DNA of 60,620 nucleotides, filler included. It is 6 parts of 6 records of this genome, joined end to end, with 100 filler letters (N's around TTAATTAATTAA, not from the genome) between each part and the next. Parts side by side here need not be neighbours in the genome. Positions count along the whole stretch, not along the records: positions 16,775 to 26,568 come from SRR2962707_5568; 5 more parts are not named here. The stretch is one strand, 5' to 3'. The notes beneath the pieces were generated by a model. The model was given only the letters and a program-made list of their open reading frames with translations. It did not search any database and was not told the origin of the DNA. Both the position numbers and the translations under genes were made by a program. Shown here piece after piece: positions 1,680 through 46,935 of the stretch (position 1 is its first letter; each line of letters opens with the position of its first letter).

Positions 1680-4600
1680 ATGTCCGCAACTGCCAACGGC
1701 GACTTTGCCACCGACAACCCGTTTCGTCAGCAGGTGCGCGCGAATTACACGGCGGATGAGGCGACGATGGTCAACGATCTGATCGGGCGGATCAAGCTGA
1801 CAGAACAGGACCGGGCCGAGGTCGCCGCCACGGGTGCAAAATATGTGGACCGTGTGCGCAAGGAAACATCGCCATCTATGATGGAGGCGTTTCTGGCCGA
1901 ATACGGCCTTTCGACCGAAGAGGGCGTCGGCCTCATGTGCCTGGCTGAGGCATTGCTGCGGGTGCCCGATGCCGAAACCATCGACGATCTGATCGAGGAT
2001 AAGATCGCGCCAAGCAACTGGGGCGCGCATCTGGGGCATTCCACATCTTCGCTGGTCAATGCATCGACCTGGGCGCTGATGCTGACAGGTCGCGTGCTGG
2101 ACAATGACCCCCGCGCGCCGGCACGCGTGCTGCGCGGCCTCGTGAAACGCATGGGCGAACCGGTGGTGCGCACCGCCGTGGGCCAATCGATGAAAATTCT
2201 GGGCCGCCAGTTCGTGCTGGGCCAGACCATTGACGAAGGTATGAAAAACGCCCGCGATCTCGAGAAGAAGAGATATACCTATTCCTACGACATGCTGGGC
2301 GAAGCCGCGCGTACCGACGCTGACGCCGTGCGCTATCACGCAGCCTATTCATCGGCGATTGCGGCGATTGCCAAACAGGCCAAGGGCGATGTGCGATCAT
2401 CCCCCGGGATTTCGGTAAAACTGTCGGCACTGCATCCGCGCTATGAATACACCCACAAAGATACGGTTATGACCGAACTTCTGCCGCGCGCCCTGGACCT
2501 TGCCAGACAGGCGGCAAAGGCCGGTATCGGATTCAACATCGATGCCGAAGAACAGGACCGTCTGGACCTGTCACTGGACGTGATCGAAGCGATGTTGTCG
2601 GACGCATCGCTAAAGGGATGGGATGGTTTCGGCGTCGTGGTGCAGGCCTATGGCCGCCGCGCCGCCCCGGTGATCGAGACGCTGTATGACATGGCCGAAC
2701 GCTATAACCGCAGGATCATGGTCCGTCTGGTCAAGGGCGCCTATTGGGACACGGAAATCAAGCTGGCGCAGGAACTGGGTGTCGAACGCTTTCCCGTCTT
2801 TACCCGCAAGGTCAACACCGACACCAGCTATATGGCCTGCGCGCAGATGCTGATGGACCGGCGCGACCGGATCTATCCGCAATTCGCCACCCACAACGCC
2901 CACACCTGCGCCGCCGTGATCGCCATGGCAGGCAATGACAAGGCCAGTTTCGAATTCCAGCGCCTGCATGGCATGGGCGAATCCCTGCACGGCATCGTCA
3001 AGGATGCCGAGGGCACCCGCTGCCGCATCTATGCGCCCGTTGGCGCGCATCGCGACTTGCTGGCCTACCTAGTGCGGCGCCTGCTGGAAAACGGCGCGAA
3101 TTCGTCTTTTGTGAACCAGATCGTAGACACCTCGATCCCGTCCAGTGCCATTTCCACCGACCCGGTGACCGAGGTGCAGGCCCTGAACGGCGCTGTCGCC
3201 AACCCCACGATTTCGCTGCCCGGGGATCTGTTCATGCCGGAACGCCCCAATTCCAAAGGCTTCCGGATCAACGAACCCGCCTCGATCCTGCCGCTACTGG
3301 CCGCACGCGAAGGGTTCGCCGACGCCACCTGGACCGCCGGGCCGATGATTGTCGGCAATCCCGCGCCGCAGGGCCCGGCGCGCAAGGTGATGTCACCTGC
3401 CGACAGCACCCGCATCATCGGCACCGTGCATGACGCAACGCCAGCCGAGGTTGCAATCGCGCTTGACGCCGCGCAGGCGGGATTTGACGAATGGTCCGTC
3501 GTGCCGGTGGCCGAACGTGCCAATATCCTGCGCCGGGTTGCCGATCTATACGAGGCAAACACCGCCGAATTGACCGCGATCACCACGCGCGAGGCAGGTA
3601 AGACCGTTCCAGACGGCATCGCAGAGGTGCGCGAGGCGGTGGATTTCCTGCGCTACTACGCGAACGAGGCTGAGCGGCTTGAGGATGAAGATCCCGGCAA
3701 ACCGCGCGGCATCTTTGTCTGCATCAGCCCATGGAACTTTCCGCTGGCGATCTTTACCGGCCAGGTGGCGGCGGCGCTGGCCGTGGGCAATGCAGTGCTG
3801 GCCAAACCGGCAGAACAGACGCCAATCGTCGCGGCCCGCGCCGTGCAGCTGATGCGCGATGCCGGCCTGCCTGACGCGGCACTGCAGCTGCTGCCCGGCG
3901 ACGGGCCCACGGTCGGCGGCCCGCTGACCAGCGATCCTCGCATTGCCGGGGTCTGTTTCACCGGCTCGACAGAGGTGGCGCAGATTATTCACAAGGCTGT
4001 CGCCAAAAATGCCGGGCCGGATGCCACGTTGATCGCCGAAACCGGCGGTCTAAACGCAATGATCGTGGATTCCACCGCCCTGACGGAACAGGCGGTGCGC
4101 GATATCCTGATCTCGTCCTTTCAGTCCGCCGGTCAGCGCTGTTCTGCCCTGCGCATGCTCTATGTCCAGGACGAGGCGCGCGATCGCCTGCTTGAAATGC
4201 TCTACGGCGCGATGGAATCGCTGGTCATCGGCGATCCGTGGCGCACCGATGTGGATGTGTCCCCGGTCATCGACGCCGAGGCGCAGCAGAGCATCATGGA
4301 CTACGTCGCCCAACACAAGGCGGCCGGTACGCTGATGAAATCCCTGCCCGCCCCCGATGGCGGCACCTATGTCACCCCAGCGGTGGTCAGCGTGAACAGC
4401 ATCGCGGATATGGAGCGCGAGATTTTTGGCCCCGTGCTGCATGTGGCAGGGTTCCGGGCACGCGACATCGACAAGGTGGTCGATGCGCTCAATGCCCGCG
4501 AATACGGGCTGACATTTGGCCTGCACACCCGCATCGACGACCGAGTGCAGCAGATCGTCGATCGCATTCACGTCGGCAACACCTATGTGAATCGCAACCA

Positions 4601-5348
4601 GATCGGTGCCATCGTCGGCAGCCAGCCGTTCGGCGGTGAAGGGTTGTCCGGCACCGGGCCCAAGGCCGGTGGACCGCTGTACCTCAGCCGGTTCCGCCGC
4701 ACTGGCAAGGTCGAGGCGTTGGCCGCCCCGGTCGGCCCCGCCCCGGGCCGGGACGCGATTGAATTGGCCCTTGATCAGATCGATGCACGCAACTGGGCGG
4801 CACGCGCGGACAAGGTTTCCGTCCTGCGGGCCGCACTTAGCGGGCGCAGCGGAGTCGTGCGCCGGGCACTGGCGGAAACTGCGGCCTTTGACATGTCACC
4901 CCAAACGCTGCCCGGCCCAACGGGCGAAAGCAACCGCTTGCGCATGTTCCCGCGTGGTATGGCGCTTTGCCTTGGTCCGACTGTCGAAATTGCCGTGGCC
5001 CAGGCCATTCAGGCCACTGGCGCGGGCTGTGGTGCCCTGATCGTGGTGCCCGGCGCGGTGGCATCGATGGCCGTGGCGCTGTCTGCCGCCGGCGCGCCGG
5101 TGGTGGCGCTGGATGGCACGGTCGATCCCGAAACACTGGAAACCGTGCAGGGGTTATCGGTGATCGCGGCGGCGGGATCGTCAGACTGGACTCGATCGCT
5201 GCGCATCGCGCTGTCACGCCGCGACGGCCCGATCCTGCCGCTGGTGACAGAAGTGGTCGCGCCAGAGCGCTATGTCATCGAACGTCACCTGTGCATCGAC
5301 ACCACAGCGGCAGGCGGCAACGCGAGCCTTCTGGCGACGTCGTCATGA
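1680..5348 (+). CDS. putA: Bifunctional proline dehydrogenase / P5C dehydrogenase
   Basis: SYDMLGEAA, RLVKGAYWD, YLVRRLLENGANSSF, ETGG and SAGQRCSA motifs; AGGAG RBS before ATG 1680. Confidence 0.97.
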   Translation: MSATANGDFATDNPFRQQVRANYTADEATMVNDLIGRIKLTEQDRAEVAATGAKYVDRVRKETSPSMMEAFLAEYGLSTEEGVGLMCLAEALLRVPDAETIDDLIEDKIAPSNWGAHLGHSTSSLVNASTWALMLTGRVLDNDPRAPARVLRGLVKRMGEPVVRTAVGQSMKILGRQFVLGQTIDEGMKNARDLEKKRYTYSYDMLGEAARTDADAVRYHAAYSSAIAAIAKQAKGDVRSSPGISVKLSALHPRYEYTHKDTVMTELLPRALDLARQAAKAGIGFNIDAEEQDRLDLSLDVIEAMLSDASLKGWDGFGVVVQAYGRRAAPVIETLYDMAERYNRRIMVRLVKGAYWDTEIKLAQELGVERFPVFTRKVNTDTSYMACAQMLMDRRDRIYPQFATHNAHTCAAVIAMAGNDKASFEFQRLHGMGESLHGIVKDAEGTRCRIYAPVGAHRDLLAYLVRRLLENGANSSFVNQIVDTSIPSSAISTDPVTEVQALNGAVANPTISLPGDLFMPERPNSKGFRINEPASILPLLAAREGFADATWTAGPMIVGNPAPQGPARKVMSPADSTRIIGTVHDATPAEVAIALDAAQAGFDEWSVVPVAERANILRRVADLYEANTAELTAITTREAGKTVPDGIAEVREAVDFLRYYANEAERLEDEDPGKPRGIFVCISPWNFPLAIFTGQVAAALAVGNAVLAKPAEQTPIVAARAVQLMRDAGLPDAALQLLPGDGPTVGGPLTSDPRIAGVCFTGSTEVAQIIHKAVAKNAGPDATLIAETGGLNAMIVDSTALTEQAVRDILISSFQSAGQRCSALRMLYVQDEARDRLLEMLYGAMESLVIGDPWRTDVDVSPVIDAEAQQSIMDYVAQHKAAGTLMKSLPAPDGGTYVTPAVVSVNSIADMEREIFGPVLHVAGFRARDIDKVVDALNAREYGLTFGLHTRIDDRVQQIVDRIHVGNTYVNRNQIGAIVGSQPFGGEGLSGTGPKAGGPLYLSRFRRTGKVEALAAPVGPAPGRDAIELALDQIDARNWAARADKVSVLRAALSGRSGVVRRALAETAAFDMSPQTLPGPTGESNRLRMFPRGMALCLGPTVEIAVAQAIQATGAGCGALIVVPGAVASMAVALSAAGAPVVALDGTVDPETLETVQGLSVIAAAGSSDWTRSLRIALSRRDGPILPLVTEVVAPERYVIERHLCIDTTAAGGNASLLATSS

Positions 5349-5398
5349 CGGAGATACTGCCTGGAACGATTTAAATCGCTCTAGGCAGAGCGACCCGC

Positions 5399-6817
5399 CT
5401 AACCGGTCCGCGCCCAGAATGACGCCTTGCGATCATGCCGCAGGCGCAGAGTTTCGACATAGCGCAGGTGGCTTTGGAACGTTCCGTACTCCGCGATATC
5501 GCCGTCCGCAGCGGCACAATCCATCAGATGATCGGCGGCGTGGCCGTACCGGCTCGCCCGGCCCTTCTCCAGCGCAAAATCGATCATCGCCCGCCAGCAC
5601 AACACGGCGGCCAGCGGATGCCGGTCACGCAGCGTCTCTGCCGCCGGGGTCAGGATCTCGTAATAATCGCCATTCAGCTCGGACCAGCGGGTTTCGATCA
5701 ACCGCGCGGCAAGGGGCAGGTCCGGCCAATCCAGCAGGAACATCAGCGCGGTGTGCACCTCCGGGAACCGCAGCACATGCGCCTTGGCGCTATCCTCTGC
5801 CTCCATATCGTCGAAATCCGGCAGAACCTTCAGATAAGCGCGCAGAAACTCCGGGTCCAGCGTTTCACAGAACCGCGCCCAACGATGCTCTTGCGCCGCC
5901 TCCACCTGCCCCAGCGCCACAAGGCTGGCGATATAAACCTGATCCCAGACGGCATCCCCCTGCCCGTCCACTGGGCCCAGCAGGTCGATCGCATCCTGCG
6001 CCCGCCCGTCCGCCAGCAGGCGTTGCGCCGCGTCGGCGGCGATGCGCGGACGGGTCAGATCCTGATCGGAATACTGTGCAATATAGGCGTCGGTGTCGCC
6101 CTGCGCCTCGGCAATCTCTTGCCTTGTACTGCGGATCAGGCGGGCCTTGGCATCGGCCAGATAGCTGCCGCGCCCGCTGCGCAGATCACGCAAGAATTGC
6201 AGTGCCGCATGTGTTTCTGCGTCGTCTTCCAGGGGCGCATCCTCATAGGCGTCGACCAACAGACCAAGCTGCACCAAACCCGTACCCCCAAGGGCCGGCG
6301 CCAGCAGCGTGATGATCCCGTCAAATGCGCCATAGCCATTGTCCTGCACGGCGTCCCACACCTGACGGGCCAGCGCCTGGGGGTCGCGCTGCGCGCGCGG
6401 CGTAATATCAGCGAACTGGGCACGGGCGGCGCGGAACACATCACCCACCTCGCCCCGGCTGTCATCGACACGTTCGTACACCGCCGGGGCAAGCGATATG
6501 AAATCCCACAGCAGATCGAACGCCAGTACGGCATCCTCTGGCGCGATCCGGTCGGTGATCATTTCTGCCTGTGTCGCAAGATCGCGCACCAGGGCGGCGC
6601 GCTTGCGCCAGCTGACATGGCTGGTCGCCTTGCGCAGCGATACCAGCCGTTTGCGCACGTCCCGGGCCAATTCCTGCGGGCCGAGGTTGTGGCTGAGTTC
6701 CAAACGCAACCGCCGCTTGATCTCGGCGCTGCCCTGACTCACCTCGATCAGCAGCTCGGCAAGACGCTCGGCCCCAAGGGTGGTCAGATTGGCGGCATTC
6801 AGGGTTTTCTTTGACAT
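5399..6817 (-). CDS. Conserved helical protein (DUF6880-like)
   Basis: Begins MSKKTLNAANLTTLGAERLAELL; C-terminal RYGHAADHL...HDRKASFW. Confidence 0.7.
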   Translation of the reverse strand: MSKKTLNAANLTTLGAERLAELLIEVSQGSAEIKRRLRLELSHNLGPQELARDVRKRLVSLRKATSHVSWRKRAALVRDLATQAEMITDRIAPEDAVLAFDLLWDFISLAPAVYERVDDSRGEVGDVFRAARAQFADITPRAQRDPQALARQVWDAVQDNGYGAFDGIITLLAPALGGTGLVQLGLLVDAYEDAPLEDDAETHAALQFLRDLRSGRGSYLADAKARLIRSTRQEIAEAQGDTDAYIAQYSDQDLTRPRIAADAAQRLLADGRAQDAIDLLGPVDGQGDAVWDQVYIASLVALGQVEAAQEHRWARFCETLDPEFLRAYLKVLPDFDDMEAEDSAKAHVLRFPEVHTALMFLLDWPDLPLAARLIETRWSELNGDYYEILTPAAETLRDRHPLAAVLCWRAMIDFALEKGRASRYGHAADHLMDCAAADGDIAEYGTFQSHLRYVETLRLRHDRKASFWARTG

Positions 6818-6934
6818 GCACCCTGTCTGCCATCCCTGCGGCCGCAGGAAAAGTACGATCTGTGCCAATCCCGGCGTTGCACAGATCACCCCAACCGATC
6901 CGCGGGCCGACACAGCAATCCATGCGCCAGATAC

Positions 6935-6965
6935 AAAAAGGCCCCGCGCAGCGTTGCGCGGGGCC
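6935..6965 (-). terminator. Rho-independent terminator of the OmpA-family gene
   Basis: Minus strand GGCCCCGCGCA-acgc-TGCGCGGGGCC followed by TTTTT. Confidence 0.85.
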
Positions 6966-6990
6966 AATGGAACATCGTTTCCAACTGGGA

Positions 6991-8904
6991 TCAGGAGTTG
7001 CTGCCATCCAGCAACGGCGTGATCCGGCGCACGGCCGCGCGGCGGTTGGCGCGTTCGGCAACCGGAGTCTGCACGATCAGATCGCTTTCACCATAGCCCT
7101 GCACCACCAGGTTTTCTGGCGGCACGGCAAAGTATTCCGTCAACGCCAGCGCCACAGACTCCGCGCGCCGGTCGGACAGAGCCAGGTTATAACTGCCGGC
7201 ACCCACAGCATCGGTGTGGCCTTCGACCAGGAAAACCTCGGACGGGTTGCGCTGGATCATCCTGCGCATGGCATTGCCCAAGGCGGCCAGTTCCTCGGCC
7301 TCTTGCGGCTGGATCACAGCGGAGTTCGTTTCAAAGTTCACAGAATCCACGCTGATTTCCGGCACCAACTGGCGCACGGCGTTAATGTTGCGGATCTGGC
7401 TGAGTGAGAAGGTCCTGTTCACATTCGTGGCCTGCGCGGCCGTCAACTGCGCCTCAAGATCATCGGCGCCGATATCATTGAAATTCACCGCCCTGCGGGT
7501 GCTGATGCGGGGCAGCGTGCTGACCTCAACCGCTTGCGAACTTTGCGTGTCGTCAAACAGCAGCGCGGTCGATCCATCGGGCAGCGTGCGCGCCCGGCGC
7601 AGCACACGGCCATCGGCTGCGCGGATCGTCTCAACTTCGGTGCCATCCTCGCGGGTGACAACGGTGCGTGTCGATCCATCCGAATAGTTGTAGGTCTTGA
7701 TGTCGGACCCCGGCTGGCGCAGCAGGGCATCGTCATTCTTGATCACCCGGTACTGGCCATCGCGTTCGGCGATCACGCGGTCGCCCGTGTTGGCCGCCAC
7801 GGTTTCATTTTTGCGCAGTAGGCTACCGATGGCAACGGCACCAATGCCCAAAATGGCCGCCTTTTCAAAGGCTGTCAGACCCTTGTCGTCATCGTCGTCT
7901 TTCTTCTTTGCTTTGGCCTCCTTCTTTGCTTTGGCCTCGGTGCGCGTTTCGCCGGTAAGATCGGTGTCAAACTCCTCGTCCGAACTACGTGCGGTTTCCT
8001 CGGTCACGATCTCTTCGACCACATTGGCCTCAGCCTCAGCTGCAGCGCTGCCTTCAGCGTTGGATGCAGCCATGACGCCGGGCGCCTCGGCGTCGGCTTC
8101 CGCCTGAATTTCAGCCTGTTCTTCGGAATTCATCGGCGCAACATCTTCGGCCCTGGCCGCTGGCCGGGGTTCTGGTGTTGTGGCTTCTGGTGTCTGGGCC
8201 TCAGGCGCGGCAACGGCGGTTCCACCGGCATTGGTTTTCAGCTTTTCCGCCAGGGTTTCCGCTGTCTCATCTGCGGGAGCATCAGCAGGCATATCCGCTT
8301 CTGCAACTGGCTCAGTCGCGTCCTGCGCTGGCGCGGCGTCTGGCTCGATGGTCGCCGCCTCCTGTGATGCAGCCTCGGGTGCGGGGGCAACATCTGCGTC
8401 GGCCTGGGCCTCGGGTGCAGTCGCAGGCGTCTCAGCGGTTTGCCCGCTCGGCGCATCAGATACGGGCTCCGGGCTAGACTGCGCAGCCTCTGGGCCGGGC
8501 TCTGCGACGGGTGTAGGTTCGGCAGTTGCGGCCTGCGGCGCAGGTTCGGCTGGCGCTGTCAGCGGCGCGGGTGTGGCCTCGGGCGCAGGTGCCTCGGGCG
8601 CTCTCTCAGCGGCTTGCGGCGCAGCCTCGGGCATTTCGGTCACAATGTCCGCAGGCGCATCAATCGGCGCGTCCAGCGATTCATCGACAGGTGCATCAAC
8701 ATTGGCCCCGGCTTGCGCCTCGGCCTCGGCCTGGTTTTCAACCGCCTCTTCCAACTTCTGGCGCAGCAGTTCCGCCTGGACCTCTTCCTCGGTCTGGGCC
8801 GTGGTCTCGGCGCTTTCGGTTTGGGCAAAGCTCGGGATCGGGGCTGCGGCAAGGCTCGCCACCAGCAGCATGGCCGTCGAGGATTTCAGAAATCCGGGGT
8901 TCAT
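6991..8904 (-). CDS. OmpA-family peptidoglycan-binding protein with long Ala/Pro/Glu-rich N-terminal region
   Basis: Signal peptide; C-terminal VNFETNS...EGHTDAVG...NLALSDRRAESV...NRR. Confidence 0.9.
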   Translation of the reverse strand: MNPGFLKSSTAMLLVASLAAAPIPSFAQTESAETTAQTEEEVQAELLRQKLEEAVENQAEAEAQAGANVDAPVDESLDAPIDAPADIVTEMPEAAPQAAERAPEAPAPEATPAPLTAPAEPAPQAATAEPTPVAEPGPEAAQSSPEPVSDAPSGQTAETPATAPEAQADADVAPAPEAASQEAATIEPDAAPAQDATEPVAEADMPADAPADETAETLAEKLKTNAGGTAVAAPEAQTPEATTPEPRPAARAEDVAPMNSEEQAEIQAEADAEAPGVMAASNAEGSAAAEAEANVVEEIVTEETARSSDEEFDTDLTGETRTEAKAKKEAKAKKKDDDDDKGLTAFEKAAILGIGAVAIGSLLRKNETVAANTGDRVIAERDGQYRVIKNDDALLRQPGSDIKTYNYSDGSTRTVVTREDGTEVETIRAADGRVLRRARTLPDGSTALLFDDTQSSQAVEVSTLPRISTRRAVNFNDIGADDLEAQLTAAQATNVNRTFSLSQIRNINAVRQLVPEISVDSVNFETNSAVIQPQEAEELAALGNAMRRMIQRNPSEVFLVEGHTDAVGAGSYNLALSDRRAESVALALTEYFAVPPENLVVQGYGESDLIVQTPVAERANRRAAVRRITPLLDGSNS

Positions 8905-9238: not shown

Positions 9239-9338
9239 NNNNNNNNNNNNNNNNNNNNNNNNNNNNNNNNNNNNNNNNNNNNTTAATTAATTAANNNNNN
9301 NNNNNNNNNNNNNNNNNNNNNNNNNNNNNNNNNNNNNN
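9239..9338. other. Artificial contig linker
   Basis: N-run, TTAATTAATTAA (stops in all frames), N-run. Confidence 0.99.
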
Positions 9339-16674: not shown

Positions 16675-16774
16675 NNNNNNNNNNNNNNNNNNNNNNNNNN
16701 NNNNNNNNNNNNNNNNNNTTAATTAATTAANNNNNNNNNNNNNNNNNNNNNNNNNNNNNNNNNNNNNNNNNNNN
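16675..16774. other. Artificial contig linker
   Basis: N-run, TTAATTAATTAA, N-run. Confidence 0.99.
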
Positions 16775-17601
16775 CAGCAGCAGTAGTAGTAGCAGCAGCA
16801 GCAAAAACAACAAAAACAACAGCGACGACGCCGACGGCAATGACGACAACATCAATGTCGTCCATATTTTGGCTCGATTGAAGCGGGCTGCACCCTCTAT
16901 ATGCCCGAATAAAGGCTTCTGGAAACAACTTGTGGAGCTGGATGCTCAGCTTGGAGCACGACACGAGATGCTTCCCGAAAGCCAATGGCCTCGAATATAT
17001 CGCTTGCAAAAAGCATTGGAAATGCACAGTCGTGGAGCGTCCCCCATAAATTGGATTGGACTGAATTCGCTAACGCAGACCTGTCTTAGTCGGGACACGG
17101 TGCATCGGTTGGTAGTGCAGCGGTCTGCGGATTTTTGCAATGTGGTTTGTCATTTTTTGCTGCTCGCCGCTTAGTGTGTTACTTTACCATTTGATGCGAA
17201 ACAGGTATTCAATTTGTGAGCAATATCTTGCAAGCGCAGCACGTTCGCGGCTTCCTAACCCAATAACTGAGGCGCAACTTATCTCGCAATGGGGATCATG
17301 CACAGCTAAGGCACCATGCGTCCGGGATCAAGTTGGCTCGTTGTCTGCCAACCCAGCTCCAGATGGTCTACTTAGCGATGACACAGTCCGCGTGCCAACT
17401 GCATGTATTCTGGCGACCATTGTTGCAAATGCGTTGTGGGAAGACTTAGCGTACCGCCGGAATGTGCCCAGGCTTCTTTTCCAACTCGCACATCAACAGG
17501 AAGCAATTGATGTCATAGATGTTCGCGAGTGTCTCCACCTAGTGCAGCACAACGTGGACTTTGATGACTTGATTTTGGATGTGCCTCACGCAAGAAAGTA
17601 A
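16775..17601 (+). CDS. Eukaryotic dual-specificity phosphatase-like gene, 3' part (possible intron 17108-17204)
   Basis: LARLKRAAPSICPNKGFWKQLVEL resembles the DSP C-terminal I-x-PN-x-GF-x2-QL motif; the catalytic motif is not in the window; exon structure uncertain. Confidence 0.5.
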
Positions 17602-17763
17602 GTTTTGATATCTTGGGCGCTAGACTTCACAACTAAGGTCCCCGCCTTAGCAATCGTGTTTTTACGTTCAAATGGTGGCCGGTCAAGGTATGCTCGTGAA
17701 ATTGTCACTTCAACGAACCGGCTGTTAGACCGTGGTACTTTGCGCGATACGCACGCTGTCGAC

Positions 17764-19571
17764 ATGGCAACGGCCACTGCTTTCCGGCGCAGTTGTGCTG
17801 CAGTTGACCTTGCTGTTTCGCTGGCTTTGGACCCTACACGAGGCGCTTTGGGCACCCAAGTGCCAGGCTGCGCGGTAGCACTTGTGCGAGAAGGTTGGTG
17901 CATGCGGCATGTTGTTTCTAGCAGTCCGCAGTTGCTGCCGAAATTGAGTTGTGTCATTGATGCACTTTCAGGACAAGTTGTTCATCGATCCTGTGGTGGA
18001 TACTGCCGTCTGGACCGCAACGGGCTTAGTGGTGAAGGCCACGTCGGGTGTGACACCGTTTTTCTCACCGCATCCATTTCAAAAACCGTGTGCGCTTTAG
18101 TGTGCTTGCGCGCGGTTGAGCGCGGAGTTATATCAAGCTTAGACGCTGACTTGCGGGAGCTGGTGGGACTTGGCAGCAGCGATTGCAAGGGTTTCGCTGG
18201 CGACGGCGAGGCTCCCTATTCGGCCGCCGCGGTCATTGCGCTTGCCCGTAACCCACATTTTCCTGGTATGCCGGTGACGTTACGACATCTGCTAACGCAC
18301 TCCTCGGGTCTTTGCGACAATGAAGCAGCTCTGGAAGCTGGCTCCGCATGGCGCGTTGAGGAACGAGACTTCGAAGGATCGCTGATCAAGTGCGGGAACC
18401 ATTGTGGCGCGCGTGCTATTTGCGACCGACCTTGTGCAATTTGCTATAGATTGTCAGCTGTAGATTGTGCTTGCCCTTGTCGCTAATGGTTTCTGGTACT
18501 GTTCTCGGCAAGGTATGTGGAGCAGCGCCTTTTGACAACTGGTTCTTCGTCGTCAAATGCTCGCATATGGAGCTCAAAGGCCCCTCCTGGGCGTGCGAAA
18601 TACCATTACTCCAACGCTGGATTTACACTTTTGGGAGCCGTCCTGGAAGTGGTGTCAGGGCGATCATTGCATACTCTCGCAGAAGAATGGGTATTCAGGC
18701 CATGTGGAATGAGTGCGTACGATGAGAAGCATGCATTTGTTCTTGCACGCTCTGCTTTTTTTCGGCATCTTGCACTCCTCGCGTCGTGTTGAGCTGATGG
18801 TTGTCGCACGGCTCAATTGGGACAACATCTCGTGTGCAACAAATAGCTCGATCGTCGTTTTCGTGTAAGATTGTGGAGACTGGAATGCCGGACGTTGCTT
18901 TTCCGCACCGAAGGGGCCGCTCAATATCCCATTTTGGCGTAGCTGAATGGCCGGCCGCTCAGTTGCGGTCCACTGCAAACGACCTTGCTTCGATGCTCTG
19001 TGCTTTGACGTCGGAGATGAGCCCCGGGTCGCACTCGCTTGAGAAGTTAGCATCGACAGGACCAACCCCAGCACCCGCTAGCATTATTTCACAATCGTCT
19101 CGGGCACAAATGCTCCCGCCAGGTCCGTCACCCGATGCGTGAACGATTGTCATCTCTCCTGCTTTAGCAATGATTTTGAGAATTTAGCATTCACATGCCA
19201 TTCGTTGTGAACTTGCTTGTGGTTCTTCATAAACAGGCGGAAAATGTGGCTTGGCGTGGTGGGGAACAGATGCCATATACTCCGTGAAAAAAAAAGGTAA
19301 TGACCGCGTCGTCACGACACGACCGCTGAGATTCCATGGCAAGGAGCGTGATTGTGGTCAAAAACGTTTGTTTTTTATTTTATTAAACTTCGATTGGTGC
19401 AACAACGCATGGCCAGGTATCTTCGAGCATGGCGGTTTCATGGACGGAACACGAACACATATTTGGCTAGCTCCAGGTGCGCGCCGAGGAGCTGTTTTCC
19501 TCTCAAATGGAGACGGTGACTACAGTGATATCTCTGAGGCGGTCCACGGTTTTTTGCTGGGCAGCATGTGA
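17764..19571 (+). CDS. Eukaryotic serine hydrolase of the beta-lactamase/AmpC family, 6 exons (17764-17893, 17972-18389, 18513-18712, 18847-19122, 19237-19296, 19417-19571)
   Basis: SISK (SxxK), LLTHSSGL, YSN (YxN), HGG motifs; GT-AG splicing gives 1239 nt in frame. Confidence 0.8.
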
Positions 19572-19725
19572 CGTGTCGCTCACCTTCAAGGCGCTCACGA
19601 GTCCTTGCTACCCTCCAAAAACTTGCTTTTTCAACGCACGAGGGTTCATACTGTCATCGGCCAACGTGTAAGAAATTACAGTGTACAAGCAGTACTGTTG
19701 GCATTTTAATAAAACCGAAGCCTCG

Positions 19726-22700
19726 TCAGTTTTTGGCAACAACGCTTTCGTCGCTTCTTGGGGATGTTGCAGCCGATTCACTTCGGCTTGCAGAATCTGG
19801 ACTTTGTGCAGAACTGGCCGAAGCTGCAGTTGCCGCACGCTTCTTCTCGAGCCAAGCAACCAGCCTTTTAGTGCGCTTGACGTGAGTCATAAGTTCCGCA
19901 AGCCTCCAGCCGTCAGTATCAATGTTTATCCACTCGTCATATTTACTGTCCCATTTCAAGTAGTGAATCAATACTTCGCTGTTCCTTCGATCCACCACTT
20001 TTCCAGCAAACCACATGTTTAAAGGGTCCTGCACGTCAATGTAATCTCCGATCTCAACGTCGTCGGGGACAAAAGTAGCGCCCTGTATTTTCAGAAATGA
20101 ATGTGAGTAAACCAGCAGTGATCGCCGCTCCTACTCTGCGCACACTCAAATGTAACAAAATGGGCAGCACTGACCTCAACAACATAGTTACCGCCCTGCT
20201 CCCACTGTTCCTCTGGTGCCTCGCACGTTTGTCGTGTGGCGTCCCATTTGTTATCTGTGCAGAAAAAATCTGTGTCGGGATTCCATTTGATGGGCAAGGA
20301 CCGCCACTTTTTGCATGCCTCGCACTGTGCCCAGAACATTGCCACTGTTGGTGCTTGACTTTCGGCGTCGCTCTCATCTTGTTTGTTTCGTTTTTTCGCT
20401 TTGCCGCGACCACTGCTGGATTTTCTGTCTTTATTCTTTCTTTTTGTGGAACTGCCTGTCTTGTCGCTGTGCTTGTCAATTGTCTCAGCTTCGTCTGCTG
20501 CTCGGCGCCTGTATCTACAAAAAATGAACAACAGGCCCGCAACAAGAATAAAGTAAGTAATATTTCGGCAGTTCATTCATGCGGAGAGTCACTGTGGTCC
20601 ACAGCGATTGCGAGCTCACAAGTTCGAGTATCTTACACTTCGCGGGTTGCTGCGTCCAGCGCTTTCCATCCATTATTGATCTGAGCGAGAACGGGTCCTT
20701 TCTCGAGGTCAAAACCCCCTTTCGCTTTTGCTTCGGCACGCCGCTCACGGCAATACAAGCGGTGCGCTGCCTGGAACGAGACTTTGCGTTTGATACCCGA
20801 GGCTGGTTTCCCACCAGCACGGCGGTGGTACGTGACAAGTGTGGACTTGGTTTGACGTTGTGCTTGCAAAGCTTCACGCTGCTTTTTGAATTCTTGCCGC
20901 TGCTTCGCTTTCGCTGCCCATATTTTTGCCGAAGTGCCTGCTGATTCCCGGAGGAGAGCAAGAACCTCGGCGTACGACGCGCCACATGCAGCAGACGGAA
21001 AATGCCTTGCTGAGTCACGGCCCTTCGTTTTTCGCCTCCGGCAGCCACCCGACGGCACAATAGGAACGGTTCCCCCTTGAGTTACCTCATATTCGGATTC
21101 AGCAGCCTTTTGCTGTGCGGTTTCGAACTCAACAACAACATCAAGGATTGGGCTACCGAATACGAGCTTCTCAATCGGAACAGGTATGTTTGAATTGCAC
21201 GACACGGACTTGTTTTGGGGTTTGCTTGGCCCATCACCTGTACCGCTCAAGGAATTTCCATGGGCATCAGCTGCCACGGCTGGAAAACCAAGTGCCCGCG
21301 CGAGCTTGGACGACACTGTGTCGAATGGAGCTGTGCGCAAATGCGGGATGAAGTGGCGGTTGCTCCAATCGTGGGATGCAACGATGCCACCAGCGCCTTG
21401 TCCAAGGAGCCGACGAGTCAAATCACCGGGAGAAAGTGAAGCAATCTCGCTAGATTCAGCTGTTTGTGTTTGACTGGTACCAGAACCTCCGGCCGCTGCC
21501 GCTGGCGCAGAAGCGGCAGATTTCGCACAACAATCAAAGCTATTCATGGCGTACACTGGGGGTAAATATCCTCCAAGGCGTACCGCCTGTACGAAGTCGA
21601 CCAAGTCAAGACTTTGCTGGTCGAACCATTGGAACGCATGCTGCAGCAACGCCACTGCTCCCGATCCGTCCCCGTTGGCACTGGTGACCTTCTCGTTGAT
21701 GGTATAAAAATTGCGTGTGTTTGCGTAAAGCCGCAAAATATGAACACCCCGCCCGGCAGCAGCCCGAACTTGGTCGAGGCGACGGCTTTCTAAGGTTTTT
21801 GCATACGCATCAACACCATCCGCGATTGTGGCCATCTGTGACATTGAAGTGGGTTTTGGCGTACGTTTTCTCGACGATTTTTTCTCAGCACTTGGCGCAG
21901 AAACGTTGCTGCACGAAGACTGCATCGCCACGACGCTTTCGTTTCGCTCCGTTTGAGCGATGCCGGTGAGCTTGCCACCGACAGTTGCAGTCGAGCTCGA
22001 GCTGATCTCCGCTGGCATTGGGTCGTTCGACTCGGAAGCAAACGAAAGAATCGTGTTTGCCCATTGCCGGAGAACGTCACTTGCTTCAAGCAAACTCACA
22101 GAAACCTGGTCAACTTCATCATCGACAATGCCAGTGCATCCACTATCGGCAGTGTTGTTTGACAGCCCACTTGACGACTCAGGATTCGGAACAGGTTGCG
22201 CACTTGCACTCGGAGATTGGTGTTTTTTGCCTTTTAGATTGAGCAACGCACTTAGCTCTGCTTCAACGCGATTCCACGATGCAAGTACTTTTTCATTCGT
22301 TTGTTGCAAACGGTTCCATACGCTCGCAACCGCCTGCTCCGAATCCGAGGTTGGATTTGAGAGAGCCAACCGAACAGCTGAATCAGGCGTGTTTCGCAAA
22401 ATTGCCCGAATGGCGGTGTCCGTGTGTCGGAGCGTTTGGCGCAACACGCTCTTCTCAGAATAAACCAAAAACTCTGCAGTATCAGTCCCGTTCAATTTCC
22501 GAAATGGGGCTGACACTGCATCTGCTGCATCTGCCTTTGAAAATGCTTCAGAAGCTGTGGTGGGCGTTGCTTCACTTGAGACGAAATGCCGAATGATGTC
22601 AAGAGCTGTCACCAAGTTTGAAGTACGTTGTTCAAATCTGTGGGACACGTTTGCACAAACATCCACAATTACACTGGCACAAGCAGCAGACGCAAAAGAA

Positions 22701-25700
22701 AAAAAAACATGTCTCCTGTGAACATACACTGAGGCAGCAAGGCGAATGTTCTCCACGGCTCCAATTGTTGCACCGGTTGCCTTCATAATTTTCTGCATTT
22801 CCTCAAGTTCTTGCGGCAGAAATTTTCGCTCATTGTTCATAAAGCGCAAAACAGCAGCACACCAGCGCAAACTCCAACTTGGCTGATCAGCCAAAGCACT
22901 GGTGCCAAGACAGCTTATCGAAGAAATCTGGTCCACAAGACGCTTTTTTGAAAAAGGTGGGTCTTTTGCTGCCGGCGCAGACGAGACGTCGGTGCCGGCG
23001 GAATGACTTGCGTTGATGCCTGCCTTAACCGAGTTGTCTTTGCTGGCGAAGTCAGTGCCATGGCACGCTGTGCACAACATCCCAAGGCGCTGCAATTGTG
23101 TGTGATGTTGCTTCAGGAGCAAAGATGCCATTGTTGCCCCGGTAAAATTGAGAAAAGAGCCACGGCACGTGACTCCGCCACACAGGCACACGGCCGCTCG
23201 GAACTCTTCTTCAGATTCGGTGACACAGTTGTAGTCCTGCGTGCACCGTCAACAAATGAGAGCAAATCAACTTTGAAAACGTCGCAGCGGCGAGAAAAAC
23301 GAACAATTCGAAAGAGTCATTCAAGTGCAGCGCATAGAATTCGGGAGCAACAAACCTGGGTAAGTTCCTCACCAGGCCGAATCGGCCGCAGTGTTCGTAC
23401 GGCAATGACGTATTGCCCGTTCAGAACAGTCCCTTCCAGTGCGCAGTTAGGTGCACACGAGTGGGACATGCGCGACGAAAACGCGGCGTGGTCTTTAGCG
23501 TCGACATAGAGGAGGTCATATCCTTCAGGGTCCGACCGGTTGCGCTCAAGTCTGATGTTGTAAAACTCCGGGACCTGGCCAATAACAAGCAAATTTACCA
23601 GCACATCGGCAGCGGGACGAGGTGATGATTTGGCCCTTCCATCGCAGCGCCACACTCCGGTGGTAAAAACAACGACGCCACCCACCTGGAATACAACCTT
23701 ATCGTCCTCGTCGTGAAGATTTTGTTGCAAAGACTTGCCCTTTCCAGCAGTTGTCTGTCGAGCCTTCGCCCTCTCCAAGAATAAGCGTTGTTGCTGCGCA
23801 CGCTCAAGCTTCCGCTGCTCCTCTTCTTCCCTGTCCTTTTGTGCCCATTTCCAAGCCGGGTAAACGGACCCAAGATATTCAGTAACAAATCGATTGGCGG
23901 GAATTGTCTTGTCGGTGGCGCAAATGACACCACAGCCTTTCGGGTGGATTGCAAAATGTAGCAGTCCCACGTCTTGGCATACGGCGGCAATTTTCCGCAC
24001 ACCAGCCGCAATTTGCTCGCGACGAGGCGCTCGCGGGTCTGCGAGTGATGGGATCCACGTCCGCTCTCCGTCCGATCTTACAACGAACCGGGCTGGAGCC
24101 TGCTCCATCATCCGTTCTGCATCCTCGTCCGCCTTCTTTTGGTTTGCACTGTGTTTGCTTGCGCTGTCCGCTCCACAGCCGTGACCGCCACAACAAGGAC
24201 CAACGAAATCACCATCGGGAACTTTTTGTAGTGGTGGATCGAGACATGACATGTGAAACTCCTTGTCGCACCCAGGCCCATCACAAAGTAGCGCCTCTTC
24301 TGGGCGCTCAGACGACCCGCATATTGCACAAACAGTGTCCTCTCCGATTGGGGCTACAATGTACTCGCGCTTTTGGTCAGCGCCAGCACGCTCATCGGTT
24401 GGCAGTGGCGGGCCAGTTTCGTCAAGCGTCCCATGCGGGGCCGGGCCAGAGTACCTGCAAACAAAAACACGTTGTGTGACATTGACACACCGTGTTGCAG
24501 GCCTCGACCTCGTGTGTGCAAAGTGTAGGTCTAGCAAAACTCACCAATCCAAGAGCAACTTGATGGTATTTTGAATATCGTGCGCAAGCGTTGGGTCCTC
24601 GACAGCATTGACCGCGGGGAGAAACACATTCTCGATGAAGAAAGTTGCTTGCGACCGCGTCATGGTGAGCGGCGCAGGCACCAGCCCCAGAGCAAGCTCG
24701 ATATTTTTCCGCGTGTAGCAGTCGATACCCCAAGTGTCTCGCTCGATGATGTCTCCGCTGGACAGCTGGAGTCTCTGCCATTTCACCGTGCGGCGTTCCT
24801 GCGCTGCCACTTCGAGTGCCAAGTGGTCTGCTGACTGCGGTTCAGACTTGGCATTGGCTTGGTGGTCAGCGTCCACCGAGAGTTTGCCATCTGACGAGCC
24901 TGCAACTGAAGCAGCCACCGCCTTTTGACCGCTCCCATCTGCCGTTGCAGGGGCACTGGTTGACGCGTTGGCCTCACGTGTCGCGCTTTTTTTTCGAAGT
25001 TTAAGGCGGCGATTGCGATTGGCTTCAATCGCGTCTGCAATTGCCCTTTTTTTAGCTGCAGCTGCGTCAACAAGACGCTGCAACTCCCAGTCTTCCTTCT
25101 CCACGGCAGCGACAAAATCTTCGCGGGTCATGGACGTCTTGAGTTTCCGCATCACTCGTTCGGCTTCGTGTGGACGGAGGCATTCCGATGGTTCATACGC
25201 AGTAATAGCACGGTACCTAACGTGGTTAACATTTTTGCGCAACGCGGAATTTGACAACCGCGCGCGACCCGTTTACACAAGCCGAACCAACACCGCGCAA
25301 TGCAACAAGGTTGAGTGAGATGTAAAGGCAGCATGCGTAGCCAACGAAAATGATGCAAACCGACTCAACTCACTCTCGCTTCGAGTACGGCATCTTGTGC
25401 CATTTTCCTTGCACACAAGGCTGTCGGTTCTTTTCACGTATCATTTCAAGCAGGTCTTTGCGCCGCTGTGCCGAAAGAGTCTGTGTTACTCGCTTCTGGA
25501 ACGAGGAAATTACTTGCTTGCATTGTGCCAGCATCCAGCCAGCCTCGAAGTGTGCTGTGCCCGCGTCATCGCTGGGCGGAAAAAATGCTCGCGCATTTTC
25601 TGCAATCTGGGTTACATCACGGAGCAAGCGATCATATTGTATTTCAGCAATTCCAGTGCCACTGCCATCTCCAGCAAGCACTAGAGCCATGTACAATCCT

Positions 25701-26568
25701 TCGTCGCAGCTGTTGGCGCCCGTGGGTGAAGACGATGGCGACGAAAACACCCTCTTCGATGCACGGTACCGTTGGTCCATGACTTTGAAGTCGATGTACG
25801 GATGCGGAATCGAGGATTCAAATGTTGGGTTCGTCCTTCGCAGGTCATCGTCTTGGAAAAATGCGTAGCGGTCTTTCTGCTTCAGTTTTTTCATAATTTT
25901 GGCAAGGTGTTCGTAATTTCGTTTCGATTGCTTTTGCCGTCGTTTCAGCCGTGCTGCGGCGTTATCCTCTACTTTAGTCACATTGTAATGTGTGATGACC
26001 TCCTTCACAAGTGCTTCTTTTTTGCGGTCGAGGCCTTTGAAGATGGCCGTTTGCTGTGCCTTTGACAGTCCAGTTCCAGCAACATGCCCACTCGCTGAAC
26101 GGCTTCGTCGCTCTTTCCGTTCCCGCAGCAATGTCTCAACGCCGTCCCGCACGTGGCTGAGTTTGCGCCCATTGTACTTCAACGACTCCCAGCCAGAATC
26201 AGACACAACGTCGGCCTTCACCTGCCGTTTCATTGCCAGACTAAACGAGGACGGGTTCACGTATTCAGTTCCGTCACCGCCGTGGTGCGTGATCGTCCCA
26301 TCTGGGCGGACGTCAGCCCACCACTCGTACTGCTTGTACTTCATGTGCAGCACTTTTTCGCCGAATGGGATCAAGCCAGACTCGCCCAGCGACTTCAAGG
26401 GCCGCTCGCGATCGATTACAAGCAGCGTTGGGGGCAAAGGGTCAACGTAGTTGTCGTTGGCGGCTGCTTCCTGTGAGGCAGCAGGTGCCGAACTGCTGGT
26501 CCCGACAGCGGAAAAATGGACAGTCGACGGAGAATCAGCGACGCTGCTGCTGCTGCTGCTGCTGCTGC
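19726..26568 (-). CDS. Eukaryotic multidomain ATXR3/SDG2-type histone lysine methyltransferase, 5'-truncated; exons 26568-25374, 25216-24545, 24454-23686, 23574-23356, 23236-22728, 22637-20637, 20514-20175, 20082-19726
   Basis: Manual GT-AG splicing gives one frame of about 2019 aa; SET motifs HPKGCGVIC, EYLGSVYPAWKW, PEFYNIRLER, RMSHSCAPNC, ELTQDY, post-SET CLCGGVTCRG; also RAMA, bromo-like, PHD, HMG, CW and Tudor-like segments. Confidence 0.85.
26543..26568. repeat. (CTG/CAG)n microsatellite at contig end, poly-Ser in the minus-strand frame
   Basis: gctgctgctg... run; contig 3 also starts in CAG/TAG repeats. Confidence 0.9.
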
Positions 26569-26668
26569 NNNNNNNNNNNNNNNNNNNNNNNNNNNNNNNN
26601 NNNNNNNNNNNNTTAATTAATTAANNNNNNNNNNNNNNNNNNNNNNNNNNNNNNNNNNNNNNNNNNNN
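26569..26668. other. Artificial contig linker
   Basis: N-run, TTAATTAATTAA, N-run. Confidence 0.99.
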
Positions 26669-31754: not shown

Positions 31755-33662
31755 TCAGTTCAGTTTTGTCATCCGCCGATTGATTTCCTCGACCAACTGA
31801 AAATAGGACTCCTCAATCAATGCGGGTGTAAGGGTATCAAATATGGCATCTTTCATCGTGCGTAGAATATCTCTTGCCACATCACTTTCTATTCCATTCT
31901 TCCTAAGCCAGTTTTCAAGAAATTTTAGTTTTCCACCCTCGTCAGGTAAGTCTGCAGAAGAGATTTTCGGTAGTGCGAAGCCCTCGATTGCTGTTTTGAA
32001 ATGACTAACAATGTGATTGTTTTTTATGAAATCTTCTCCCGTGATTGCGCTTAGAGATGGAAGCATATCTTGGTACGTGTTCCACTCCCCGAAGCCTTTT
32101 GTACTTTGAAAGAGTTTCTTTTGCTCTTTTGCGGGGGCATCGGAGTCGCTGACAATCATGCAACGTCTGTCGGCAATCTCCATCATTGGTGTGATGGTTC
32201 TGATATGCTTTGCGCCATTGGCATGACACATGCCAACGTCCTTGAATGTTGATTTAACGTTCGCTGAAGCTTTTTGGAGTGCGACCTTGAATAATGCTTT
32301 ATCTTTCCAGCCTTCGAAAATCAGATTTTTGGATTTGAGTGCCGAGAAGATTGAATGCCCAAGCGCGTTGTAGAGTACTTCTTCGTCGGCGATGTTGGAA
32401 TCTTTTGCGGATTCGATTGAGGAGACTTCATTCTTTTTCGTGACGATATAGTGGCGGTTTATATCTTCGACATCGATCATAAAAATTGAATGCGTGCTGA
32501 AGACCACATAGTTGTTTTGAGCGATACGGATAAGTTCTTCTTTAAGGTATCTTGCTCCGGACGGGTGTAATCCGATCTCTGGCTCGTCGATAAGGAGTAG
32601 TGCGTTCTCCAGAGACTTGCTTTTGACATCAGCGGAAATCATCAGAAGGAATGTGATAAAACGCTTGAAACCGTCACTTCGCTTGGAAAAATCGAAGCTG
32701 TTCTTTTCTTTTATCCCCGGAATTACCTTTTCACCGTCAAGCCTGAGTTGAAATTCGATCCCCTTTAGCTCCGGCCAAATTGAGCGGAAATGCGACGTCG
32801 CTCGTTTTGCAATCCGGTCAAAAAAATTCTGTTGTCGATTTTGGCTTTGAAGTTTTAAAGCTTCTAACTCTTTGCGTATCTCGCTTACGCCGGATAAGAG
32901 AAACAAATTCCACAATGGTGTGCAGTCTGAGGGTTTCGCCGCAAATTCTTCAATCAAAACCTCTGATGGGAGCAGGTTCTTTTCGTCGTACTCCCAAAAA
33001 ATACATGGCACCAGATTTAATCGAGCGACATTTACTGCTGCCATTCCAATCGCATTTCGAACAGAAATGGAGGACGCGGGGTCAATGTACGCCTTAGGTA
33101 TCTCAGGAAAATCTTGAAGGTTAACTAGCTCGAAATGCGACAGTGGTTTGTCCTGCCCGTTAACAGAAATATTAAAGTCCGCCGGACAGTTTTTGTTGGG
33201 CACCCCCCACGATCCGACAACGTCGAAAGCGGTTGATATAGGCGGGTAGTAAAACGTTTTGTTTTCTCTCTTTAGATTTACCTCATAGGTGATTTCGTTA
33301 ATCCGCTCACAAAGTTGGTGTAGTCTTTCTTCCGTACCCGCTCGGGAGGCGACGACAGGGTTTGGGTTCTTGCTCAGAATTTTTGTGTTTGCCCTTTTTA
33401 TGATTTCGCTTGTTTCTGATTTGTCGAAATGGAAGTTGAACTGAATACGCGCGATTGTTGGTTCAGGTTCGCTGGGGAGAGCTTCGCGGACATCGTCTTT
33501 CGCGCTGGGCTCTCTGTCGTCGTCCAAGAATGAAAGCGCTTTTAGGATATTCGATTTTCCAGACTCGTTTATCCCGACCAAGACTCGACACTTTGGATCG
33601 AGCAGAACTTTTACATCTCGAATTGACCGATAGTTTTTAATTTCAACGAATTTCAGTTGCAT
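31755..33662 (-). CDS. OLD-family ATP-dependent nuclease (ABC ATPase plus TOPRIM)
   Basis: Walker A GINESGKS, SDGFK signature, Walker B LLIDEPE, STHS, TOPRIM EGWKD and DSD; AT-rich relative to flanks. Confidence 0.85.
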   Translation of the reverse strand: MQLKFVEIKNYRSIRDVKVLLDPKCRVLVGINESGKSNILKALSFLDDDREPSAKDDVREALPSEPEPTIARIQFNFHFDKSETSEIIKRANTKILSKNPNPVVASRAGTEERLHQLCERINEITYEVNLKRENKTFYYPPISTAFDVVGSWGVPNKNCPADFNISVNGQDKPLSHFELVNLQDFPEIPKAYIDPASSISVRNAIGMAAVNVARLNLVPCIFWEYDEKNLLPSEVLIEEFAAKPSDCTPLWNLFLLSGVSEIRKELEALKLQSQNRQQNFFDRIAKRATSHFRSIWPELKGIEFQLRLDGEKVIPGIKEKNSFDFSKRSDGFKRFITFLLMISADVKSKSLENALLLIDEPEIGLHPSGARYLKEELIRIAQNNYVVFSTHSIFMIDVEDINRHYIVTKKNEVSSIESAKDSNIADEEVLYNALGHSIFSALKSKNLIFEGWKDKALFKVALQKASANVKSTFKDVGMCHANGAKHIRTITPMMEIADRRCMIVSDSDAPAKEQKKLFQSTKGFGEWNTYQDMLPSLSAITGEDFIKNNHIVSHFKTAIEGFALPKISSADLPDEGGKLKFLENWLRKNGIESDVARDILRTMKDAIFDTLTPALIEESYFQLVEEINRRMTKLN

Positions 33663-33827
33663 GATTTTCTCGCGTGAGCCGATGCGGGCGAATCAATAGT
33701 ACCAGTCTATTGATTCCGACAAATAGTCTTGGATCGATTATTTCGAATCCGAAACATCTTTATTGAGAAGGTAAGACGAGGAGGGGGCGTTGAACTTCTC
33801 TGTCGCTGCAGCCGGAAGATGTACGAG

Positions 33828-36692: not shown

Positions 36693-36792
36693 NNNNNNNN
36701 NNNNNNNNNNNNNNNNNNNNNNNNNNNNNNNNNNNNTTAATTAATTAANNNNNNNNNNNNNNNNNNNNNNNNNNNNNNNNNNNNNNNNNNNN
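36693..36792. other. Artificial contig linker
   Basis: N-run, TTAATTAATTAA, N-run. Confidence 0.99.
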
Positions 36793-46835: not shown

Positions 46836-46935
46836 NNNNNNNNNNNNNNNNNNNNNNNNNNNNNNNNNNNNNNNNNNNNTTAATTAATTAANNNNNNNNN
46901 NNNNNNNNNNNNNNNNNNNNNNNNNNNNNNNNNNN
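46836..46935. other. Artificial contig linker
   Basis: N-run, TTAATTAATTAA, N-run. Confidence 0.99.

Follow-up and report, generated by a model that had tools for sequence, protein, structure and literature searches.

RAMA domains have been recorded in stramenopiles, chlorophytes, rhodophytes, animals and giant viruses, and rarer architectures were described in which RAMA is combined with SET and with PHD, Chromo, Tudor or Bromo domains (Iyer, Zhang and Aravind 2016, PMC4738411). In the chromatin enzyme MPND, residues S113, S115 and W135 of the RAMA domain hydrogen-bond the DNA backbone, and each of the corresponding alanine mutants nearly abolished DNA binding (PMC9963953). ATXR3/SDG2 is the major methyltransferase for trimethylation of lysine 4 of histone H3 (H3K4me3) in Arabidopsis (PMC13084085; PMC3585709). 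The enzyme is phylogenetically divergent, has a weak association with COMPASS or none, and is present in protists too (PMC13084085). We analysed a stretch of 60,620 nucleotides (nt), hereafter the window, which is composed of six contigs and contains a gene with both a RAMA and an ATXR3-like SET domain. The gene is located on the minus strand of the contig 16775-26568; all gene coordinates below count along the window and refer to this strand. The locus most probably represents one expressed eukaryotic gene for a histone methyltransferase of the SDG2/ATXR3 class, most likely an H3K4 writer, which may be self-targeted by its own reader modules. The domain identities and their order, the splicing, the single frame and the arrangement kept in one relative were established here.

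The original prediction placed a RAMA domain at 26140-26400 and quoted four peptides (LGESGLIPFG, ADVRPDGTI, YVNPSSFS and DSGWESLKYNGRKLSHVR), all of which are present in the minus-strand frame 25370..26620. A hidden Markov model (HMM) search agreed with this span: Pfam PF18755 matched at 26144..26401, covering residues 43-128 of the translation of 25373-26527, with E 2e-14 and 53.9 bits (gathering cut-off 35.2). When exon 1 was searched with phmmer against all PDB sequences, the single match was the RAMA domain of mouse MPND (7ydt, E 7.9e-5). An AlphaFold2 model of residues 25-145, based on an alignment of 41 RAMA sequences, reached a mean pLDDT (predicted local distance difference test) of 88. 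Its three best Foldseek matches were the MPND chains 7ydw_A, 7ydw_B and 7ydt_A (E 1.4e-7 to 4.2e-7), with template-modelling (TM) scores of 0.85-0.87 on the target and root-mean-square deviations of 1.2-1.7 Å (7ydw: TM 0.87, 1.2 Å). The next matches were two chains of 6pbd, in which RAMA is the C-terminal domain of CcrM (E 6.6e-3), and beyond MPND and CcrM no Foldseek chain fell under E 0.5. Since the HMM, the MPND sequence match and the fold concur, the RAMA assignment is real and its predicted coordinates were correct. The orthologs P0002, P0003 and P0004 likewise exceeded the PF18755 cut-off.

In the phmmer alignment, whose MPND chain index exceeds the residue number by one, the DNA-contacting residues S113, S115 and W135 of MPND correspond to N91, S93 and W113 in the 385 residues translated from exon 1. 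Two of the three are thus unchanged, while at the remaining one Ser has given way to another polar residue (S113 to N91). S93, G112 and W113 were near-invariant among the 41 aligned RAMA sequences. From the homology to MPND and CcrM we infer that this RAMA domain binds DNA.

Downstream of the RAMA exon, the raw open reading frames (ORFs) of the minus strand encode PHD and SET (23320-24540), SDG2_C (20636-23248) and zf-CW (20094-20576); they are in differing frames or parted by stops, and GT..AG introns were read at the breaks. Contigs of three public runs were placed on 19700-26560, including those of X1, the likely source run, and of X2, a run of another study with the same organism code as X1. 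The X2 contigs omit seven segments of 92, 122, 90, 119, 111, 90 and 157 nt, whereas the X1 contigs traverse all seven; each skipped segment was set by the script to start with GT and end with AG on the minus strand. An X2 contig of 4659 nt (21343-26560) makes five of the skips and thereby links the RAMA exon with those encoding SET, and a second one of 1459 nt covers 19700-21362 with two skips. Removal of the seven introns left eight exons, of which exon 1 encodes RAMA, and yielded a single frame that stays open for 2019 codons between the contig end and the stop codon at 19726-19728; the other two frames of the spliced sequence were open for at most 282 codons. The 1275-residue database protein P0001 is continuous over the junctions KRE/Y, W/YSGPAP, FQ/VPEFYN and LTQ/DYNCV. 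The intron reading is confirmed by the agreement of this continuity with the contrast between X2 and X1 contigs and the restored open frame. Hence RAMA and SET reside in one polypeptide, as had been predicted, and the exact GT..AG skips in the X2 contigs suggest that the gene is expressed as a spliced transcript.

The SET domain (23359..23916) matched Pfam SET with E 2.7e-11 and 44.2 bits (cut-off 22.4) and is split by intron 3 and a charged insertion. Directly after SET and post-SET, SDG2_C was detected (E 5.2e-16, 59.1 bits, cut-off 27). This region was compared with P0089, a land-plant protein of 2451 residues. Pfam matches GYF_ATXR3 in P0089 and, with 819.9 bits, SDG2_C over its full length, so that P0089 is an ATXR3 ortholog. 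Exon 4, with the SET core, was 53% identical to P0089 over 72 residues (E 2e-24), and for exon 5 the identity was 31% over 144 columns (E 1e-18). Among solved structures, the best SET chains (KMT2A, KMT2B and SETD2) reached only E about 1e-4 and were thus weaker than P0089 in these pairwise scores. The catalytic motifs read intact as SHSCAPNC, ELTQDYN and CLCGGVTC; xHSC, the Tyr of ELTxDY and the post-SET CxCxxxxC are what we take to be the catalytic hallmarks of SET enzymes. With the protist protein P0080 as the query, members of this family were retrieved from volvocine algae, land plants and Tetrahymena. No GYF domain was matched by Pfam in any exon, nor in the scanned algal, ciliate and other protist members, so that GYF marks the plant subgroup only. 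A JAB/MPN metalloprotease was likewise not matched in any exon, which rules out an MPND ortholog. Membership in the SDG2/ATXR3 class, with H3K4 as the probable target by homology, is a well-founded assignment, and the predicted H3K4 writer remains a sound reading given the 53% identity of the SET core to land-plant ATXR3.

The complete order of the protein is RAMA, a divergent bromodomain, PHD, SET with its charged insertion, post-SET and SDG2_C, a long low-complexity stretch, zf-CW and a chromo-barrel-like domain. The divergent bromodomain with an insertion (25571..25903) gave 15.3 bits and E 0.02 with the Pfam Bromodomain model (cut-off 21.7). The aligned stretch of the ortholog, present in P0002 and in the metagenome locus L001, reached 35.3 bits and resembles BRD1/BRPF1 chains. 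The PHD finger (24190..24330) was found with E 5.3e-8 and 33.2 bits (cut-off 24), and its best PDB matches were the PHD fingers of KMT2D, KDM5 and UHRF1. The zf-CW domain (20205..20336) scored E 3.8e-11 and 43.3 bits (cut-off 27.5). At about 19915-20040, a chromo-barrel/Tudor-like domain was indicated by sub-threshold matches to Pfam MBT (E 0.0037), Agenet and Tudor-knot; the regions aligned to it in the relatives P0082 and P0083 passed Tudor-knot with 26 and 28.6 bits (cut-off 20.8). An HMG box was not detected at the end of exon 6 at E up to 10, although L001 has one. Within the bromodomain, at 25571-25660, the sequence ENARAFF, which is ENAQAYF in the ortholog, occupies the position of the bromodomain Asn. 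The usual acetyl-lysine-anchoring Asn is presumably that of the 'YN' in a NAxxYN motif, which we take to be the site of ENARAFF and ENAQAYF; judged by this motif, acetyl-lysine binding may not be of the usual kind.

Relatives of exon 1 were searched with HMMER among 1.84 billion representative sequences, which returned 78 proteins at E up to 1e-3. The closest ones were exon-sized fragments of 55-73% identity; seven of these span the RAMA part (P0002-P0005, P0010, P0011 and P0016), and others span the bromodomain or the end of the exon. Thirty-seven of the 78 proteins, chosen as the closest and the longer ones, were scanned with Pfam. RAMA was found in 34 of them, JAB in an MPND-like arrangement in 12, a bromodomain in three, PHD and Myb in two each, and SET in none. 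A metagenome scan retrieved two loci, L001 and L002, which are 99.7% identical to each other and therefore count as one relative. L001 is a marine relative with 59% identity. Its ORF 1507-2742 encodes RAMA and the bromodomain and is followed by a GTACGT..CAG intron whose removal restores the frame; PHD, SET and SDG2_C follow in an uninterrupted frame (2619-6563), and an HMG box and zf-CW in the ORF 6479-6997. The spliced protein was collinear with L001 over residues 40-1977 (tblastn). Introns differ between the two genes; where one gene has an intron, the reading frame of the other runs on without a break. The database proteins P0001 and P0002 are the two halves of the L001 locus, divided by gene callers. 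At the level of the deduced proteins, the RAMA-SET fusion is verified in two organisms.

Outside this pair, RAMA was not found at E up to 0.05-0.1 in any of ten other SDG2_C proteins (P0079-P0084, P0086, P0088, P0089 and P0092), and PF18755 was present in none of the 15 matches of the P0080 search or the four matches of another search. RAMA is thus a lineage-specific addition to a family whose other scanned members are devoid of it. With the protist proteins P0080, P0082 and P0083 the family described here shares a backbone made up of a bromodomain, SET, SDG2_C, an HMG box, zf-CW and Tudor-knot. Pattern scans of genome contigs and viral contigs yielded no relatives among 111 and 226 pattern matches, respectively. 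The ESM Atlas returned no usable match for exon 1, and P0001 gave only generic SET clusters below 0.9.

Compared with described systems, the protein shares the RAMA fold and sequence family with mouse and human MPND (7ydt, 7ydw), which likewise carries RAMA N-terminally on a chromatin enzyme. The enzyme of MPND is a JAB deubiquitinase, whereas the protein described here is a SET methyltransferase without JAB and has Asn in place of S113. With land-plant ATXR3/SDG2 (P0089) it has the SET core (53% identity), the post-SET region with the start of SDG2_C (31%) and the Pfam SDG2_C match in common. The plant enzyme possesses GYF, which was not matched here, but lacks RAMA, bromodomain, PHD, zf-CW and chromo-barrel. 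The protist proteins P0080, P0082 and P0083 agree with our protein in backbone architecture and linker motifs, but had neither RAMA (E up to 0.05-0.1) nor a Pfam PHD match, and their HMG box was undetected here. The RAMA+SET architecture of Iyer et al. (2016) conveys the same idea, namely RAMA, SET and histone readers in one polypeptide for methyladenine recognition in chromatin; the available portion of that text names no SET class or species, so that their example may be of this ATXR3 type or of another. At least 125 'RAMA+' strings occur among the lines listed in the accessible part of its supplement, 123 of them RAMA+JAB and two RAMA+N6. The same lines contained no RAMA+SET, RAMA+PHD, RAMA+BROMO, PHD+SET, SET+HMG, HMG+ZFCW or UIM+RAMA. 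The supplement includes Bathy04g03050 from the marine protist Bathycoccus prasinos, in which RAMA and a CW zinc finger are found on one chromatin-modifying enzyme; according to its supplement line, by which alone it was compared, this enzyme is a DNA adenine methylase and not a histone methyltransferase. Among the papers listed in our literature search, none combined 'RAMA domain' with ATXR3, and RAMA occurred together with 'SET domain' only in Iyer et al. (2016). The idea of a RAMA and SET combination is thus already in print since 2016, and the gene described here is a new, expressed instance.

In the favoured explanation, RAMA would be the DNA-contacting module that grips the backbone of double-stranded, probably linker, DNA beside the nucleosome. 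Modified histone tails would serve as docking sites for the bromodomain and for the PHD, CW and chromo-barrel-like domains, and together the DNA- and histone-contacting modules could hold the enzyme on the nucleosomes of transcribed genes. Several observations weigh against this explanation or parts of it. The score of the gene's own bromodomain is sub-threshold (15.3 versus 21.7 bits), the SDG2_C match covers only part of the 420-position model, and the assignment of the C-terminal domain to the Royal family comes from matches below the cut-off. The two X2 contigs share only 20 nt (21343-21362) and are unjoined, and the RNA label of X2 is a tool's guess, its origin from spliced RNA being deduced from the seven exact GT..AG skips. 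SHSC replaces what we take to be the canonical NHSC motif; plant ATXR3 has CHSC, which makes the deviation a family trait. Finally, H3K4 specificity was established for Arabidopsis ATXR3 only and for no protist ATXR3, as far as the consulted parts of the literature extend (PMC13084085, PMC3585709).

A first alternative assigns RAMA a more specific function: the domain would selectively read N6-methyladenine (6mA), for instance in methylated ApT of linkers downstream of transcription starts, and thereby recruit the H3K4 methyltransferase. Adenine methylation of the DNA would in this case act as a direct instruction for methylating H3K4. The domain owes its name to fusions with N6-adenine methylases and restriction nucleases, and an ability to tell methyladenine apart was predicted for it (PMC4738411). 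The RAMA domain of MPND pulled down a 6mA duplex selectively (Kweon 2019, PMC6591016), but in a later study 6mA had no effect on MPND binding in electrophoretic mobility shift assays or microscale thermophoresis (Yang 2023, PMC9963953). The methyl preference of RAMA is hence disputed between published tests of MPND. In the MPND crystal structure only backbone contacts were present, with CcrM RAMA reported to behave likewise (PMC9963953), and MYSM1 RAMA showed no 6mA selectivity (PMC6591016). In favour of the alternative, the intensity and width of 6mA coincide with those of H3K4me3 throughout the eukaryotes encoding AMT1, the hierarchy of the two marks being left unresolved and readers being deemed key (PMC12695648). 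The Bathycoccus protein in the supplement of Iyer et al., with the architecture RAMA+N6-MTase+ZFCW, moreover places RAMA and zf-CW together on an adenine methylase (PMC4738411). Against it stands the lack of RAMA in all ten other SDG2-type proteins scanned, including that of Tetrahymena. AMT1-dependent 6mA has been characterised in Tetrahymena (PMC7145601). Because these ten proteins are free of RAMA, a coupling of 6mA to H3K4 methylation through RAMA, if real, would be lineage-specific.

On balance we regard selective 6mA reading as rather unlikely, although the protein is a reasonable candidate 6mA reader. That the RAMA domain of a marine protist ATXR3-type enzyme truly reads linker 6mA, so that adenine methylation directly recruits an H3K4 methyltransferase, appears unlikely. 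If 6mA reading did occur, the enzyme's own CW finger would read H3K4 methylation, such that the two marks reinforce each other, and PHD subunits of the adenine methylase complex, which in some lineages read H3K4me3, would join in this reinforcement. The protein would then be a 6mA reader of a kind so far missing from eukaryotes' known repertoire, and would give the relation of 6mA and H3K4me3 a causal direction.

A second alternative considers RAMA mainly as a histone- or ubiquitin-linked chromatin module which binds H3/H4, perhaps together with a motif upstream that resembles a ubiquitin-interacting motif (UIM). The isolated RAMA domain of MPND pulled down histones (PMC9963953), and 12 of the 37 scanned proteins of the RAMA search were fusions to a JAB deubiquitinase. 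The UIM-like motif DDLQLALAMSLSE was present in P0003, P0004 and L001 (1507-1830), 40-70 residues before RAMA. The Pfam UIM matches to the ortholog motif were sub-threshold (E 0.0036-0.04), and the corresponding part of the studied gene lies beyond the contig end. The conservation of the DNA-contacting Ser and Trp (S93, W113) speaks against a mainly histone- or ubiquitin-directed function; histone binding and DNA binding are not mutually exclusive. This alternative seems quite improbable to us. In the RAMA-less relatives P0080-P0086 a similar LxLALxxSLA consensus was observed at the N-terminus. A third alternative, an artefact in which RAMA and SET belong to two adjoining genes or a chimeric contig and form no fusion protein, is compatible with the gene callers' division of the relative's locus into P0002 (RAMA and bromodomain) and P0001 (PHD, SET and SDG2_C) and with the lack of SET in the 37 scanned proteins of the RAMA search, but is extremely improbable given that the division of L001 falls at one short GTACGT..CAG intron where the studied gene has a continuous open frame, that the X2 contigs join the exons with exact GT..AG skips to a frame free of stops over 2019 codons, and that the order agrees in two DNA assemblies (X1 and the stretch itself) and two metagenome contigs (L001 and L002).

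The favoured explanation, a self-targeted ATXR3-class enzyme, bears on the relation of two chromatin marks. A survey in Nature Genetics from 2025 reported the coincidence of 6mA with H3K4me3 on the downstream side of transcription starts in AMT1-encoding eukaryotes (PMC12695648); the word RAMA is absent from the available part of its text. As a natural, expressed fusion of the main predicted 6mA-sensing domain with an H3K4 methyltransferase, the protein offers a concrete candidate for addressing whether 6mA can instruct H3K4 methylation. It also suggests how the little-studied, non-COMPASS ATXR3 class could be targeted in protists: modules for DNA binding and histone reading are part of the enzyme itself, in place of the GYF domains of its plant counterpart. 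This value is tempered by the listing of the architecture type in 2016 and by the disputed methyl preference of RAMA.

The gene model in detail starts with exon 1 (25374..26568), which encodes RAMA and the divergent bromodomain. It is open to the contig end, where its 5' part is cut, and terminates at a GTGAGT donor (X2 joint 25214/25372). Since the contig breaks in a (GCT)n run, the N-terminus is missing; the protein comprises at least 2019 residues, and the orthologs start 50-70 residues further upstream. Intron 1 (25217..25373; 157 nt, GTGAGT..TTAG) was skipped in the X2 contig and present in the X1 contig. Exon 2 (24545..25216), defined by X2 splicing and collinear with L001, encodes a linker region without a Pfam family. 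At two A-runs of this exon, 60 nt apart (24987 and 25047), the X1 contig is one base short, while the stretch and the X2 contig concur and the frame stays open; the difference is probably a homopolymer error in one assembly. Intron 2 (24455..24544; 90 nt, GTGAGT..TTGCAG), also skipped in X2, holds an in-frame TGA at 24541-24543. An alternative genetic code for this TGA was ruled out, as the codon sits within the intron.

Intron 3 (23575-23685; 111 nt) interrupts SET, and intron 4 (23237..23355; 119 nt) separates ELTQ from DYNCV, a position at which the frame of L001 and P0001 is uninterrupted; both are X2 skips. Exon 5 (22728..23236) encodes the post-SET CxCxxxxC and the start of SDG2_C, according to Pfam SDG2_C and the similarity to P0089. 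Intron 5 (22638..22727; 90 nt, GTATGT..CACAG) was skipped in X2 and is absent from P0001; it is in frame and free of stops, so that a stop-to-stop reading adds 30 spurious residues to the 871-residue ORF. Exon 6 (20637..22637) contains the long remainder of the SDG2-type C-terminal region and is collinear with L001 3117-6338. Exon 7 (20175-20514) carries the CW-type zinc finger and is flanked by introns of 122 nt (20515-20636) and 92 nt (20083-20174), both skipped in X2. Exon 8 (19729..20082) encodes the chromo-barrel/Tudor-like domain and the C-terminus and is followed by the stop codon.

Five spacers of the form N44-TTAATTAATTAA-N44 (9239-9338, 16675-16774, 26569-26668, 36693-36792 and 46836-46935) split the window into its six contigs. 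The contig 16775-26568 (9.8 kb, GC content about 0.52) with the RAMA/SET gene is the sole eukaryotic part. The remaining five contigs are bacterial, with a GC content of about 0.6 and large ORFs for LysR, PutA, OmpA, histidine kinases, a family-5 solute-binding protein, a CoA-transferase, FtsX and RlmN. The assembly therefore mixes a protist with bacteria. On the plus strand of the eukaryotic contig, three ORFs in different frames (17602-19571) matched Pfam Beta-lactamase (E 2e-12, 9e-9 and 3.5e-4) on successive parts of the model. This region looks like an intron-split gene of the serine-hydrolase or penicillin-binding type, convergent to the methyltransferase gene. A bacterial contig contains a minus-strand ORF (31758-33692) with AAA_15 and AAA_21 ATPase domains of the OLD/AbiEii-like type. 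Its GC content is 0.46 compared to about 0.6 for its contig, and its role may be that of a defence gene carried on an acquired island.

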